From Candidatus Aenigmatarchaeota archaeon (GTDB taxonomy: Archaea > Aenigmatarchaeota > Aenigmatarchaeia > CG10238-14 > SCSR01), in NCBI GenBank assembly GCA_039000165.1, contig JAWBTW010000012.1, forward strand, positions 1 through 20,602: 20,602 nucleotides of DNA, in the 5' to 3' direction. Position 1 is the first letter of the stretch; each line of letters opens with the position of its first letter. Shown here piece by piece: positions 5,425 through 11,730 of this stretch. The notes below the pieces were generated by a model. The model searched no databases. It was not told where the DNA came from and saw only the letters and a list, made by a program, of their open reading frames with translations. The position numbers and the translations under genes are program-made.

Positions 5425-5578
5425 AATATTAATTTAAAAATTTTTATTTAAAAAAAGCGAAAAGTTTTTAAATTCTTGAAACAAAGAAATAATATCTTTC
5501 TACCTTAAGTTAATTTGCATAAAAATTTACTTAATTTAGTCAACTCTGGAGGTAAGTAAAAAATGTCGTGTGATAAGC

Positions 5579-6115
5579 ATGAGAAAAGAATTGATAGTGG
5601 TAATGCTAGCCAGCATACTCTCTTCAATAGGAATGGGAATATTTGCTCCTGTTTACTTGTTATTCTACCAAAAAATTGGGAGTTATGGAGAAATAACCGC
5701 AGCTTTTGGAATTTTCTGGATAGCCGTAGCTTTGTTAGAGGCTCCTTTTGGCTATCTTTCTGATAAGTTTGGTAAAAAGCTTTTTATAGTTTTGGGAGGA
5801 ATTCTAACTTCTCTCGTTTCTCTTTCTTATACACTCGTTAAAACTGCCAGCGAACTTTACCTTCTAGAATTTTTAAGCGGAACAGCAACCTCCATGCAAA
5901 CTCCTGCCATTCAATCTTTAATTTCCGAAATAACTCCAAAGAAGAAAAAAGGTAAAATTTTTGGCATATTCAACTCTTCTGTTAATTTAACGTATGGAAT
6001 AGCTTCTTTATTCTCAGGGATTTTTATAGGAATTTTTGGCCCGAACTCAGTTTTTATACTCTCTTCTTTCTTCCAGTTTGCCTCTGCTTTAATCGCTTCA
6101 AAGATTAGGAGCTAA
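5579..6115 (+). CDS. Half-size (about 6 TM) MFS-type transporter
   Basis: MFS motif A GYLSDKFGKK, PAIQSLISE and KGKIFGIFN; 178 aa from ATG 5579 (alternative GTG 5570). Confidence 0.85.
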   Translation: MRKELIVVMLASILSSIGMGIFAPVYLLFYQKIGSYGEITAAFGIFWIAVALLEAPFGYLSDKFGKKLFIVLGGILTSLVSLSYTLVKTASELYLLEFLSGTATSMQTPAIQSLISEITPKKKKGKIFGIFNSSVNLTYGIASLFSGIFIGIFGPNSVFILSSFFQFASALIASKIRS

Positions 6116-6225
6116 TCTTTCTTAGAAAATTTACAAATGAGTTCATGCTGAGCTAAACCTATGTAAATGGGTTTACCACAATACTTACAAATTCCTTCTG
6201 GTTCTGGCAAATCTTTTTCTGCCAT
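6112..6225 (-). CDS. 37-aa C2HC zinc-finger microprotein (not in ORF track)
   Basis: Hand translation MAEKDLPEPEGICKYCGKPIYIGLAQHELICKFSKKD*; CxxC-x10-H-x3-C; ATG 6 nt after the TIP49 stop; stop overlaps the MFS stop. Confidence 0.75.
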   Translation of the reverse strand: MAEKDLPEPEGICKYCGKPIYIGLAQHELICKFSKKD

Positions 6226-6231
6226 AGGTGT

Positions 6232-7596
6232 CTAAACCAGGAATTGCTCCTCAAATTCTTTCAAGTATTGAACTGATTTTTTAACATCAGAGAAGAGTTT
6301 TTCCACATAGGCCACATGTTCTTTCTCAATCTTTTCTGATTTTTTCTCCTTTGCTACTTCATAAGCAGGGGCTATTAGCTGAATGGCATACCTTAAGCTT
6401 GTTTTTGCTCCTATTTCTGTTAGGTACTCTAGAGCCTCTTCGCTAATTTTTATCTTTTCTGATTTTGCTCTTATCTCTATAATCTTTTTAATTTCATCCC
6501 TTTGATAAGGTTTTGTGTTTATTATCAATAGTCTATCAAGCAAGTCCAAAGGCATTCCGTGGGCAGCTTTTACATCAGTCCCTCTTATAGTTGAAAACCC
6601 TCTATTAGTTGCAAAAATTATAATTGGAGCAAGCTCTTGTTCCAGAGCACGGTTGAGAAAGGCGAAAGTTTCTATATCAAGCATGCTACACTCATCTATA
6701 AAAACAACCCCAGGCAATAATTCGCATTTTCCTTCCTGAACTAAGTTTTTAATGTATTCGTCAACTTCCTTTCTTACTTCTGGTTCAATTTCTTTTGATT
6801 CCCTTCCCCCAAAGAATAGACTGAAAATGTCACTGCCAGACCTTGAGCTTGCTACATCTAAAGCATGTAAGGTTACAGGATAGACGAATTCTTTTTCTTT
6901 CAAAACCTTTCCTTTGGGTATTGGTACAGTTCTTTCTGTAGTTAAATCAACTTTCCTTTCTTTTGCCGCTTCTTCGCTTATTCCCAGCTTAACTATTCTT
7001 CCTCCTTCAACATCAATCTGGATAATATCGCCTGTTTCCACACCTTGCTGAATTAGCTGAATCGCAAAACTTTGATCCATAGTAAGCTTTTTACTTTCAT
7101 CTTTTGTTGCGATTTTAATCGTTGCCCCAACTGGAATTTGCTGGTAAGGATTGTAAGGATGCTGAGCTTTTTCTATGCTTATTTCTTTCACTTCACCTTC
7201 ATAAATTTTCCTCATCTCATGAATTCTTGCTCCTATAGCTTTTCTTAAAGTTTGGGTTAGAAACTCTGTTTTTTTCATTTCTGTAGAGAAAATCTCGCTT
7301 GCAGCTAAAGGAACAAAGGGAACGTCATGCCCTAATTCTTTTGCTATAGCCATCGCAATAGCAGTTTTTCCTGTGCCCGGAGGACCAGCTAACAAAACTG
7401 CCCTTCCTGCAAACTTTCCTTCTTTTATTAGTCTAACAACTAAGCCTGCAGCCTCTCTAGCTTCTGTTTGACCAACCATCCCTTGAGCTATAGGCTTAGC
7501 TTTTAAACCTTCTAGACCTAAGCCTTGAATGTGAGAATGTGCTGCTATCCTTTCCCACTCGCGAAGAGACTCAGGAATTTCGGCTATTTCAGCCAA
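6232..7596 (-). CDS. TIP49/RuvB-like (RUVBL/Rvb) AAA+ ATPase
   Basis: AAHSHIQGLGL, GMVGQ, Walker A GPPGTGKT, DII insertion, Walker B FIDECSML, ATNRG, DLLDRL, SLRYA; TTG start with GAGGTGAGG SD. Confidence 0.95.
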   Translation of the reverse strand: MAEIAEIPESLREWERIAAHSHIQGLGLEGLKAKPIAQGMVGQTEAREAAGLVVRLIKEGKFAGRAVLLAGPPGTGKTAIAMAIAKELGHDVPFVPLAASEIFSTEMKKTEFLTQTLRKAIGARIHEMRKIYEGEVKEISIEKAQHPYNPYQQIPVGATIKIATKDESKKLTMDQSFAIQLIQQGVETGDIIQIDVEGGRIVKLGISEEAAKERKVDLTTERTVPIPKGKVLKEKEFVYPVTLHALDVASSRSGSDIFSLFFGGRESKEIEPEVRKEVDEYIKNLVQEGKCELLPGVVFIDECSMLDIETFAFLNRALEQELAPIIIFATNRGFSTIRGTDVKAAHGMPLDLLDRLLIINTKPYQRDEIKKIIEIRAKSEKIKISEEALEYLTEIGAKTSLRYAIQLIAPAYEVAKEKKSEKIEKEHVAYVEKLFSDVKKSVQYLKEFEEQFLV

Positions 7597-7602
7597 AATT
7601 CC

Positions 7603-8232
7603 TCACCTCTCAACTTCTATATTAAGAATTCCGTTCTTAAATTCTTTTTTGGTAATGGAAGCGTCAGATGGTATAGGAATCAACTTAAAGTAAGCCTTAT
7701 CTCCTGCAAAAGCTTTAACCTCGATGCTTTGCTCAAGCTTTTTAACTTCAATATCTTCTTCTTTCACATCAGGAAGCTTTATTTTTATTATTTGTTTGTT
7801 CCCTATTTTCTCTATTTTTGCTTCAGGCTCCTCTGTAACTTTTGGTACTCTAATTTTTTTCTTTTCAGGCTCTTCTCGAATTTCTTCTACTTCTTCTACA
7901 GCTGGTTTGATTCCGAGTCTTCTTTTAATCTCAGGCTCTATTTTTTTGTAATCTCCACTTGTTTTTACTTCAATTTTTGGTTCCCTTCCGCTTACTGAAT
8001 GGATTGTGATGCTTATTCCTCCTCCTTTAATTCCTGGTCTAAACTTGATTCTTGGTAACTCAAACCCAAACATTTTGTCTATTCTTTCAAACTCTTTATC
8101 TATATCCTCGAATATATCAAAAATTCTGACTTCCCTTCCTTTTTCTTTAAGCCTTTCTCCACAGATTGGACAAAACTCCCATTCGTCCTTAACTTTTTCC
8201 CCGCAGCTTGGACATTTTTTTCTTTCAAACAT
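7603..8232 (-). CDS. Zinc-ribbon-fused archaeal Hsp20 (alpha-crystallin domain) protein
   Basis: N-terminal CPSC-x10-CPIC; middle GGGISITI...EPKIEV; C-terminal IKLPDVKEEDIEV...FKNGILNIEV. Confidence 0.85.
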   Translation of the reverse strand: MFERKKCPSCGEKVKDEWEFCPICGERLKEKGREVRIFDIFEDIDKEFERIDKMFGFELPRIKFRPGIKGGGISITIHSVSGREPKIEVKTSGDYKKIEPEIKRRLGIKPAVEEVEEIREEPEKKKIRVPKVTEEPEAKIEKIGNKQIIKIKLPDVKEEDIEVKKLEQSIEVKAFAGDKAYFKLIPIPSDASITKKEFKNGILNIEVER

Positions 8233-8274
8233 TTTTTGACCTACTTAAAATTTTTCTGAATAATTTAAATTGTT

Positions 8275-8697
8275 TTACTCTACTTTTATTTCTTTTCCTT
8301 TTTTCTTTTCCTTCTTTGGCAATCTTATAGTTAAAACTCCTTTGTCCATCTCTGCCTTTGCTTTTTCGTAATCAACAGGAACTGGTAAGGTAATTACTCT
8401 TCTCAAAGCTCCGAACTTTCTTTCAGCTCTGTAGATTTTTTCTGTTTTTTCAATTTTTTTCTCTTTATGCTGGGCAGAAATTTCTAGAGTATTTTCTGTA
8501 GCTCTTACTGTTACATCGCTCTTGTCAAAACCTGGTAAGTCTGCTCTTACTATTATTTCCTCTTCAGTTTCTGAAATGTCTACAGGAAATGTTTCTGCAA
8601 AAAACTCTTCACTTGGAAGCCTTTCTAGTAATTGTCTCATTCTCCTTCTCATTCTTTCCAGTTCTTCAAAAGGATCCCAATAATCCCAAAAGACCAT
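8275..8697 (-). CDS. hsp20: Small heat-shock protein Hsp20
   Basis: [42 protein letters not shown], terminal IKVE (IxV); ATG 8697 follows a GAGGTGA SD at 8703-8709. Confidence 0.95.
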
Positions 8698-8726
8698 TTT
8701 TTTCACCTCAGTTAGTGTTTAAATAA

Positions 8727-8766
8727 CCTAAAAAATATAGCATTTAGGGGTTTAAATATTTTTCGG
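8727..8766 (-). promoter_or_regulatory. Candidate BRE-TATA promoter of the hsp20 operon with downstream palindrome
   Basis: Minus strand CCGAAAAA-TATTTAAA (8766-8751) followed by CCTAAA-N10-TTTAGG (8727-8748). Confidence 0.55.
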
Positions 8767-8832
8767 TCCATTTTTTGCTAAAGCAAATTGCTAAAACAAA
8801 CTTTTTATTTGAGTTTAATTAAAATTAAAGAC

Positions 8833-8994
8833 ATGGTAAGCATTTTATTCATGCTTTTTGGTGTAATAGATTTGTTAGGAGGCTTAGCTTTAACTTTTGG
8901 TTCAGTTTCATTTCTTCCTCAAATAGCAAAGTATGTGGGAATTATTCTTATAGCAAAAGGACTTTGGACGATAATAACAAGTATTATCCACTAA
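8833..8994 (+). CDS. Small 2-TM membrane protein (53 aa)
   Basis: MVSILFMLFGVIDLLGGLAL...YVGIILIAKGLWTII; ATG 8833 preferred over TTG 8788. Confidence 0.7.
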   Translation: MVSILFMLFGVIDLLGGLALTFGSVSFLPQIAKYVGIILIAKGLWTIITSIIH

Positions 8995-10351: not shown

Positions 10352-11665
10352 TTAATGCTTTTTCTTTTTCTTTTTTCTTATTTTTAGCTTTTTGAAGGGA
10401 TAGTTAACTGGATTTTTTATGACTATTTTATCATCCTTCTTACAGATGTCATCTGGCACACAAACTTTAATGTCAGTGTAAAAATTTTGATTATCGCAAT
10501 TTGGAGGAAGCAAATTTCTCTCTTGCCTCAAATGCCATCTCAGTTGAGTTCTCAAGTAATTAGCTCTCAAAGGAGGCAAATTTTTTGCGTTCCAATCTGT
10601 TAAAGTTTTTTCTATTTTCTCCCAGTCCCAACCCATGCTTCTTAAGAAATTTATCAAGATAAAAACACTTCTTTTTCTTCCGTCCGACAAACCTTTTAAA
10701 ATAGTCTGGATACAAGGTGGAAAATATTGTTCTGGAATTGCTTTCATCTTTTTAAACTTAACCTTTGGTAGCTCTTCCTTAACTTCTATCTTATACTTGG
10801 CAGACCAGTCTAAAGCTTCTACTATTAAAGCTTCAGCATCATGAAGCTTAACTTTTTGAACTAAAAACTTCTCATTAACTTTAACTTTCTCTGGAAGTGC
10901 TTGTTCTTTCTCAAACTTTTCTAAATCTTCTGGTCTTATGGGCAAACTTACTAGTAAAGTTGACTCGTGTAAAGAATAAGGAAGTCTAAACAAATGTCTT
11001 GAACCAAAAACATCCATGCTAACAACTTTAAAAGGGTCTAAACCGTTTTCGTCAGTTATTTCTTCAATTTTTTTCCCAATCCTTTGAGAAATTTCTTGAA
11101 GAGAGGCAAGAGCGAGCATTTCTTCTTTTAATTGCTCTTTTACGTACCATTTCAAGTATTCTATAACTTTCTGAAGGAGCTCAGGATAAAGAATTTGAGA
11201 AGGTTGAAAATTAATTTTTTCCGGAAGGGATTCAAACGGAATTCCTATATGAAACCCTTTCCCACCAGAAAATTTTATAGTGTAATTTTGAACACCGTGA
11301 TCCTTCAAAGCCTCTATTATTTGTTTGACAGTTATCTTTGCAATTTCAAAATCATTAACATCAGGGTCGATAAAAATATCCCAGCCAATTCTTAATTCAT
11401 CAAGTTGTACTTTTGTCATACCAACATCTAGTTTCATCGGTTGTGACCATCTTTCTACAGAACCATGAAAAGCTACAGCTCCTTCAGCAACGGCTTGTAA
11501 GACATCTTGAGGGTATTGAATGACATCAGGTCTTTTACCAAAACTTCCATCTTTATAAACAGGTATAACTTCTCTGTTTTTTCCAGCCTCTATCAAAGCG
11601 TTAAAGACAGATTCTCGTGAGTACCAATTCCAAACTCTTTGAAAGTTTATCGCCATGGCCATCAT
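10352..11665 (-). CDS. Fused DNA primase PriS-PriL (DPANN type)
   Basis: AEP motifs GWDIFIDPD, FSGGKGFH, RLPYSLH, then the PriL Fe-S domain FPPC...PPNC...VC...IC...KNPVNY; start at ATG 11665, 11662 or 11656. Confidence 0.92.
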   Translation of the reverse strand: MMAMAINFQRVWNWYSRESVFNALIEAGKNREVIPVYKDGSFGKRPDVIQYPQDVLQAVAEGAVAFHGSVERWSQPMKLDVGMTKVQLDELRIGWDIFIDPDVNDFEIAKITVKQIIEALKDHGVQNYTIKFSGGKGFHIGIPFESLPEKINFQPSQILYPELLQKVIEYLKWYVKEQLKEEMLALASLQEISQRIGKKIEEITDENGLDPFKVVSMDVFGSRHLFRLPYSLHESTLLVSLPIRPEDLEKFEKEQALPEKVKVNEKFLVQKVKLHDAEALIVEALDWSAKYKIEVKEELPKVKFKKMKAIPEQYFPPCIQTILKGLSDGRKRSVFILINFLRSMGWDWEKIEKTLTDWNAKNLPPLRANYLRTQLRWHLRQERNLLPPNCDNQNFYTDIKVCVPDDICKKDDKIVIKNPVNYPFKKLKIRKKKKKKH

Positions 11666-11730
11666 GAGAAGTTTAAAACTTCTCAATTATAATAGTAAGT
11701 TTAAATATTGAAATCTTTTTCTAAAAAATT

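Follow-up and report, generated by a model that had tools for sequence, protein, structure and literature searches.

The four-gene cluster and its products

The DNA analysed here, a stretch of 20,602 nucleotides (nt) referred to below as the window, is contig C12 (33% G+C) of a 783-kb genome assembled in 25 contigs and 91.6% complete. Its source is an Aenigmatarchaeota-type DPANN archaeon, the closest named loci of the ATPase TIP49 being those of Candidatus Aenigmatarchaeota hot-spring genomes assembled from metagenomes. We focused on four co-oriented genes on the minus strand (6112..8697). In order, they encode a small heat-shock protein (sHSP) of 140 amino acids (aa), here Hsp20 (8275..8697, with a likely ATG start at 8697 and a GTG at 8706 also open); a 209-aa protein with an N-terminal zinc ribbon and a predicted C-terminal alpha-crystallin domain (ACD), here Zn-ACD (7603..8232); a 454-aa TIP49/RuvB-like AAA+ ATPase with a TTG start (6232..7596); and a 37-aa zinc-finger-like peptide with a C2HC pattern (6112..6225). 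Successive genes are separated by 42, 6 and 6 nt, the same spacing as in a first-pass annotation made from the sequence alone.

The Shine-Dalgarno sequence of TIP49, GAGGTGAGG (7609..7601, minus strand), is written into the last Zn-ACD codons, GAG AGG TGA; it overlaps the TGA stop (7605..7603), as the first-pass annotation had pointed out, and ends 4 nt before the TIP49 TTG. All 10 TIP49-linked Zn-ACD genes examined end in an arginine codon followed by the stop, compared with 0 of 16 unlinked ones. The arginine codon is AGG nine times and CGG once, the stop is TGA nine times and TAG once, and an exact AGGTGA lies 3-9 nt before the TIP49 start in 8 of the 10 linked loci, which span TIP49 identities of 74-100%. 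Because the TIP49 ribosome-binding site consists of the last Zn-ACD codons, the two genes are a real, translationally coupled bicistron and not chance neighbours; the conservation and coupling of the junction put the arrangement far beyond chance. The earlier proposal that the genes form an operon-like unit is borne out. A weak hint of a Zn-ACD/TIP49 co-transcript comes from a 195-nt metatranscriptome-assembly contig of a relative, which spans 7436..7630 across the junction with 4 mismatches and may stem from DNA carry-over; three raw-read hot-spring metatranscriptomes yielded 0 matching reads in the 3-5% of each run that was sampled.

TIP49 matches PF06068 (6.7e-138) over profile positions 1-346 of 347, and TIP49_C (PF17856) at 7.4e-26. 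Its alignments with human RuvBL1 (E 1.6e-124; residues 9-452 to RuvBL1 7-454) and RuvBL2 (E 7.5e-118) run from end to end; it is a full-length protein with the domain II insertion and an orthologue-grade relative of RuvBL1/2. GPPGTGKT (residues 71-78), D301-E302, N331, R355 and R402, which we take to be the Walker A motif, the Walker B motif and other ATPase residues, are invariant in 12 orthologues, and in relatives the homologous start codon is likewise TTG or else ATG. The gene is single-copy in the 783-kb genome, and with a single paralogue a homo-hexamer is expected. TIP49/RuvBL is among the most conserved proteins common to archaea and eukaryotes. A search of the literature outside subscription journals gave no paper on what archaeal TIP49 does or on its linkage to chaperones. 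In one relative (G253:C29:5760-7916), matches to TIP49 residues 1-79 and 76-191 lie 1.5 kb apart in one 721-aa frame behind Zn-ACD; this TIP49 probably carries an intein near the Walker A motif.

The first gene product matches PF00011 at 2.1e-21 (76.4 bits against a cut-off of 20.8), and ends in ...KEIKVE, an IXI-type tail (I-K-V); the genome has no other PF00011 match. The NCBIfam archaeal Hsp14 and Hsp20 models match it below their cut-offs, and it also scores on Pfam CS at 1e-4. Hsp20 is a canonical sHSP.

Zn-ACD is less conventional. Residues 5-28 form a 4-Cys zinc ribbon (Zn_ribbon_3, 5.2e-9), followed, in an alignment of 25 orthologues, by a helical FEDIxKEF motif, a GGGISITI beta region, an acidic linker and a conserved PKVTEEPE motif. 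The C-terminal 99 aa reach 14.3 bits against PF00011 (E 0.046), under the cut-off of 20.8, and the protein matches the NCBIfam archaeal Hsp20 model at 1.6e-7 (31.1 bits, under a cut-off of 140). An AlphaFold2 model built with the 25 orthologues reaches a pLDDT of ~90 for residues ~130-209 only. The top Foldseek match of this domain is the ACD of Sulfolobus solfataricus Hsp20.1 (4rzk; E 1.5e-6, 30% identity), on which it superposes with a TM-score of 0.77-0.80 and a root-mean-square deviation of 1.7-2.0 A. The search returned 56 PDB matches at E<=0.001; the 27 rows listed are all sHSP chains except for one CS-domain row, and the first CS domain, that of SGT1, stands at rank 47. The modelled fold thus identifies the C-terminal domain as an ACD, and ACD fold and zinc ribbon together make Zn-ACD a zinc-ribbon sHSP-type protein. 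An IXI extension is absent: the protein ends at its last beta strand (...GILNIEVER), and all 25 orthologues terminate within a few residues of that strand. The family defined in this way, a new family of zinc-ribbon sHSPs, has 333 members at E<=1e-5, annotated at the source as 'zinc ribbon domain-containing protein' or 'HSP20 family chaperone', and every organism name given among the 120 members listed is Aenigmatarchaeota. No paper on a zinc-ribbon ACD protein was found in a search of the same literature.

The 37-aa open reading frame (ORF) at the end of the cluster reads C-x2-C-x11-H-x4-C, with 3 Cys and 1 His. No Pfam family passes threshold on it; 19 of the 41 relatives have homologues, which makes the ORF a real small gene. 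Genus g1 (5 genomes) is alone in having it downstream of TIP49; in three genomes (G006, G012 and G020) it stands between Hsp20 and Zn-ACD, in G021 it adjoins a Zn-ACD-like gene, and in the remaining genomes it is found elsewhere. The gene therefore tracks sHSP genes at least as much as TIP49. The first-pass annotation had proposed the peptide as a zinc-finger cofactor of TIP49 comparable to ZNHIT proteins; this is not supported, as it follows TIP49 in one genus only and has no match to zf-HIT (PF04438) at E<=10. We also rejected it as a zf-HIT domain on its residues, 3 Cys and 1 His instead of two interleaved sites (~7 Cys and 1 His). No zf-HIT match above threshold occurs in the genome. The only weak one, at 20.2 bits and below the cut-off, is a ~54-aa ORF with four CxxC pairs on contig C3 (G000:C3:53444-53497, minus strand), upstream of an ORF read as EF-1beta-like. 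This ORF is unrelated to the cluster and presumably resembles the HVO_2753-type zinc-finger micro-protein.

Linkage of Zn-ACD and TIP49 across archaea

Among 41 genomes of the order, TIP49 occurs in 20 and Zn-ACD in 27. We extended the survey to the class with an even sample of 251 genomes, using E<=1e-40 for TIP49 and E<=1e-25 for Zn-ACD and taking raw counts that ignore kinship. TIP49 was found in 34 genomes and Zn-ACD in 83, the latter being present in 31 of the 34 TIP49-positive genomes and in 52 of the 217 TIP49-negative ones. Zn-ACD is thus near-obligate wherever TIP49 occurs in the class.

The linkage on which the first-pass annotation had built its reading recurs in this gene-neighbourhood survey. 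In 15 of the 31 genomes having both, the gene next upstream of TIP49 is a co-oriented Zn-ACD, the two being <=15 nt apart (G000, G001, G010, G012, G024, G027, G038, G159, G170, G192, G250, G253, G258, G162 and G190). The last two belong to family f21 of another order, and the linkage spans at least four families and two orders. In two further genomes (G025 and G179), a single gene or ~0.5-1 kb separates Zn-ACD from TIP49. The two genes are apart in the other 14: on different contigs in 13, including G006, where both abut contig ends, and 9.6 kb from each other in one. In a tree of 87 TIP49 sequences, the Aenigmatarchaeota genes form one clade, and both of its sub-clades contain ACD-linked members, as would fit an old linkage that was lost repeatedly.

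The Hsp20-Zn-ACD pair, with a canonical Hsp20 gene directly before Zn-ACD, also exists apart from TIP49: G018, G020 and G030 have it, and G010 has it as a second pair; in G006, which has the same pair, contig ends leave open whether TIP49 follows. Unlinked Zn-ACD genes otherwise have unrelated neighbours, among them tRNA-intron endonuclease, GDH and a Hel308-type helicase.

To place these arrangements among archaea at large, we compared the neighbourhoods of 93 archaeal TIP49 loci, made up of the best 80 of 237 confirmed loci and the relatives' loci. The largest neighbour cluster is that of the ACD proteins, with 16 proteins from 14 loci, all co-oriented with TIP49 and 11 of them at position -1; the genes downstream of TIP49 are variable. 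Overall, the neighbourhoods are lineage-specific. The other neighbours include exosome Rrp4/41/42, NFACT, NAT10/TmcA, Tpt1, TrmI, Rio2, SUI1, PolB, Hjc and reverse gyrase, as well as a DRG-type GTPase, RNase HII and Nre; two loci (L039 and L040) have TIP49 beside a Rab-like GTPase and DUF72.

Chaperone genes adjoin TIP49 in other settings as well. In four Bathyarchaeia loci (L049, L056, L064 and L066), the gene directly upstream of TIP49 is a same-strand thermosome gene (Cpn60_TCP1, 2.2e-195) at a gap of 5-80 nt, and one of these, L066, has two thermosome genes, TIP49 and, 300 nt further downstream, a gene for a 202-aa Hsp20. This thermosome-TIP49 arrangement is an independent chaperone pairing. 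In G029, a canonical Hsp20 gene lies two genes upstream of TIP49, and Zn-ACD is located elsewhere.

In genus g24 of the same order (L017, L019, L028-L030), an exosome operon, Rrp4-Rrp41-Rrp42, directly precedes TIP49 on the same strand in place of Zn-ACD (RNase_PH 1.2e-33; RRP4_S1/KH). These loci represent three distinct genomes, the TIP49 proteins of L017 and L028, and those of L019 and L029, being >99% identical.

Promoter region and flanking genes

Read from the sequence, the candidate head promoter of the cluster is the BRE/TATA-like (transcription factor B recognition element and TATA) stretch CGAAAAATATTTAAA at 8765..8751. The first-pass annotation had described one such box at the head of the cluster; the box is indeed there, although it is not the sole TATA-like stretch. 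Others lie at ~8726..8718 and within the 42-nt Hsp20/Zn-ACD spacer (8233..8274), where AATTTAAATTA may be an internal promoter. With several TATA-like stretches in DNA of 33% G+C, a single promoter cannot be asserted from sequence. Relatives have boxes of the AAGCTTAAATATTT type upstream of Hsp20, as does the present genome upstream of its thermosome gene.

The stretch from this head box to the Hsp20 start contains the palindrome-like element TTAGGTTATTTAAACACTAA (TTAG-N12-CTAA, 8712..8731, minus strand), which may be an operator or a second TATA. The 783-kb genome has a single copy of its strict form. The element also precedes Hsp20 in L016, L114 and L115, stands before Hsp20 in four genera, and is kept even in L022 (G003), where the Hsp20 ORF has been deleted. 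An operator shared with the thermosome promoter was considered and dropped as too weak, the two regions having in common only a similar TATA box and a loosely similar downstream stretch. A scan for sigma-70 promoters and terminators, of a type not applicable to archaeal promoters, gave counts not above those of shuffled sequence.

The L022 locus is peculiar in further respects. The deletion of the Hsp20 ORF appears clean, leaving the head element and the last Hsp20 codons, with the promoter abutting Zn-ACD. A 71-aa ORF ending in CPKC stands between Zn-ACD and TIP49, and the coupling Shine-Dalgarno sequence is lost.

A profile scan of 12 ORFs of the cluster and its flanks identified the same-strand genes upstream as those of S27e, L44e, Gins51 and a primase. 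A plus-strand ORF (8788..8994, 68 aa), hydrophobic by reading and with no family match, separates S27e from the Hsp20 promoter. The primase ORF (10352..11686, minus strand, 444 aa) matches both DNA_primase_S (1e-6) and DNA_primase_lrg (6.6e-5), and is a fused PriS-PriL primase, a form reported for Nanoarchaeum. On the other side, a convergent gene on the plus strand (5570..6115, 181 aa) overlaps the end of the 37-aa ORF by 4 nt and encodes a half-transporter of the MFS type, covering MFS_1 profile positions 1-168 of 347. It is 181 aa long in the window's own genome and in three congeners (L001, L003, L004 and L021), and the homologue at L008 has 416 aa.

Proposed role, alternatives and known systems

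We tentatively read the cluster as an sHSP stress operon of Aenigmatarchaeota that co-produces TIP49 and in which Zn-ACD and TIP49 are functional partners, a reading whose chances we put a little short of even. The head promoter would drive Hsp20 and then Zn-ACD as a stress-responsive transcript, TIP49 would be translated in proportionate amount by coupling to the Zn-ACD stop, and the C2HC peptide would come last, in genus g1. Hsp20 and Zn-ACD would act as ATP-independent holdases; the IXI tail of the former could dock on the tail-less latter, giving a mixed oligomer. Zn-ACD would bring bound clients or complexes to the TIP49 hexamer, which would spend ATP on remodelling, releasing or re-assembling them. 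By analogy, TIP49 could possibly work like a RUVBL co-chaperone. The first-pass annotation had cast TIP49 as the ATPase of a proteostasis or complex-assembly module; this interpretation is supported in part, by the operon-like unit, the coupled junction, the recurrent linkage, the analogy to sHSP-AAA+ pairs and, independently, the thermosome-TIP49 loci of Bathyarchaeia. Zn-ACD is not dedicated to TIP49, and homology to R2TP is not supported. In two-chain complex predictions of TIP49 with Zn-ACD, run with separate alignments and without controls, the scores were 0.15 and 0.07 against a mark of 0.32. A stronger version, in which homo-hexameric TIP49 would power, with ATP, an sHSP chaperone or complex-assembly machine that works independently of Hsp90 and has Zn-ACD as its dedicated adaptor, in Aenigmatarchaeota and, via the thermosome, perhaps in some Bathyarchaeia, strikes us as unlikely.

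Several observations weigh against a functional partnership, and some of them point to co-expression only, that is, to a TIP49 gene packed behind an sHSP gene in a compact DPANN genome, borrowing its promoter and ribosome traffic while serving an unrelated function; Hsp20 and Zn-ACD would then be an ordinary two-component sHSP system. We regard this as a possible account, somewhat less likely than a partnership. Zn-ACD is not dedicated to TIP49, as it is present in the 52 TIP49-negative genomes, and the Hsp20-Zn-ACD pair likewise stands alone in G006, G018, G020, G030 and the second pair of G010. The linkage is lost in the 14 of 31 genomes in which the two genes lie apart, genus g24 has TIP49 appended to an exosome operon instead, and TIP49 neighbourhoods are lineage-specific across archaea, those outside the class being mixed and mostly concerned with RNA or DNA. 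The co-occurrence counts are uncorrected for common descent, and thermophily could by itself account for the distribution of both genes. The 195-nt RNA contig stems from an assembled library in which DNA may be present, and Cdc48 occurs in 39 of 41 relatives regardless of TIP49, including all five congeners. Mere co-expression accords less well with the coupled junction, maintained in 10 of 10 linked loci across TIP49 identities of 74-100%, with the presence of Zn-ACD in 31 of 34 TIP49-bearing genomes, and with the placement of TIP49 beside chaperone genes in three settings (Zn-ACD, the Hsp20 of G029 and the Bathyarchaeia thermosome).

The RNA-related neighbours raise another alternative, namely that TIP49 serves RNA, ribonucleoprotein (RNP) or ribosome biogenesis, the sHSP-type proteins being RNP assembly chaperones or incidental neighbours. 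In eukaryotes, RUVBL1/2 serve snoRNPs of the box C/D class. The cluster lies just downstream of the S27e, L44e, GINS and primase genes; S27e directly abuts Zn-ACD in G025, and the ORF before Zn-ACD in G012 is L13e-like by sequence reading alone, no profile scan having been made. The Rrp4-Rrp41-Rrp42-TIP49 order of genus g24 and the many RNA-processing neighbours of TIP49 in other phyla fit in with such a role. Yet the ACD linkage outnumbers each of these RNA-related linkages in the 93 surveyed loci, and the cluster contains no gene for a box C/D or H/ACA protein. We consider this explanation improbable. Hardly any weight falls on a true prokaryotic R2TP, in which Zn-ACD would be the counterpart of PIH1D1 and the 37-aa peptide that of ZNHIT, both docking on TIP49. 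What speaks for it is resemblance: ACD and CS domains share a beta-sandwich fold, Hsp20 scores on the Pfam CS profile (1e-4) and the fold search of Zn-ACD reaches the SGT1 CS domain at rank 47, and small zinc-binding proteins bind RUVBL1/2 in eukaryotes. Against these stand the best fold matches of Zn-ACD, all of which are sHSP ACDs, the single TIP49 paralogue, and a peptide that has one C2HC site and follows TIP49 in one genus only. Profile searches of the genome gave no match to Hsp90 (PF00183), no zf-HIT match above threshold and no match to PIH1 (PF08190), the last absence being weakly shown, as control genomes likewise gave no PIH1 match. No TPR family was found among the 12 ORFs of the cluster and its flanks, and no genome-wide search for RPAP3/Tah1 was made. 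Homology to R2TP is thus not supported: with one TIP49, an sHSP-type domain in place of a CS/PIH1 domain and no PIH1 or Hsp90 match, the sequence appears to contradict it.

Solid among the new facts are the coupled Zn-ACD-TIP49 bicistron, the near-obligate co-occurrence of Zn-ACD with TIP49 and the thermosome-TIP49 order in Bathyarchaeia. If the stronger version, with Zn-ACD as dedicated adaptor, is true, the machine would represent an archaeal forerunner of the RUVBL1/2 co-chaperone role and provide the first function for an archaeal TIP49. The hypothesis that we offer is that RUVBL chaperone-like activity predates eukaryotes and needs no Hsp90 or R2TP adaptors; the Zn-ACD-TIP49 pairing and, separately, the Bathyarchaeia thermosome pairing each give a concrete hypothesis testable in vitro. 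If the genes are only co-regulated, the cluster would still be a tidy case of operon packing in DPANN archaea.

Among known systems, eukaryotic RUVBL1/RUVBL2 (Pontin/Reptin) share with the present case a full-length TIP49 with domain II, which here lies beside chaperone-type genes. The cluster differs from R2TP/PAQosome in having a single TIP49 paralogue in place of the two that make up a hetero-hexamer, and in the partner domain, which is an sHSP alpha-crystallin domain and not a CS domain.

Bacterial two-component sHSP systems, such as IbpA/IbpB or Deinococcus Hsp17.7/Hsp20.2 (4fei among the fold-search hits), offer a second comparison. As in IbpA/IbpB-type systems, two divergent ACD genes lie side by side in the cluster, a canonical one whose product has an IXI tail and an atypical one. 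Unlike in those systems, the second member here has a zinc ribbon at its N terminus and no tail at its C terminus, and the ATPase encoded downstream is TIP49, whereas theirs is the cooperating Hsp70/ClpB encoded elsewhere. The closest solved ACD, that of S. solfataricus Hsp20.1 (4rzk), belongs to a protein that, like Zn-ACD, has a long N-terminal region. We know of no zinc ribbon in Hsp20.1, and, unlike it, the Zn-ACD family members named by source among the 120 listed are all Aenigmatarchaeota.

The lack of Cdc48 and PAN matches in this genome, where CDC48/PAN models reach <=38 bits anywhere, most likely reflects an assembly gap in the case of Cdc48. We therefore dropped the idea that TIP49 replaces Cdc48/PAN: as Cdc48 is present in 39 of 41 relatives, the five congeners among them, TIP49 is an addition to Cdc48 and not its replacement. 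In ten relatives (G001, G003, G005, G006, G011, G030, G032 and G036-G038), Cdc48 matches are split within open frames of 1,200-1,900 aa, so that the Cdc48 of many Aenigmatarchaeota may carry one or two inteins.

A functional parallel is the euryarchaeal heat-shock pairing of Hsp20 with VAT/Cdc48, in which, as here, an sHSP gene lies beside an AAA+ gene (the Phr regulon of Pyrococcus/Thermococcus and the HSR1 operon of Archaeoglobus). According to two reports (PMC10653856, PMC10746257), the Phr/HSR1 regulons hold an sHSP gene and an AAA+ ATPase, HSP20 adjoins VAT1 in P. furiosus, and Phr recognises a palindrome, so that the analogy to sHSP-AAA+ heat-shock pairs drawn in the first-pass annotation is a real one. 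A palindrome-like element, a possible operator, lies near the promoter here. The differences lie in the ATPase, which here is TIP49 and not the double-ring Cdc48/VAT, and in the presence of two ACD proteins, one of them with a zinc ribbon. In the P. furiosus pair, as described in the same reports (PMC10746257/PMC10653856), both genes possess a start and a Phr site of their own, whereas TIP49 here appears to be translationally coupled and without a start site of its own. Rather than being a homologue of R2TP, the proposed system would parallel, by analogy, both this euryarchaeal Hsp20 and VAT/Cdc48 pair and the chaperone-like side of RUVBL1/2.

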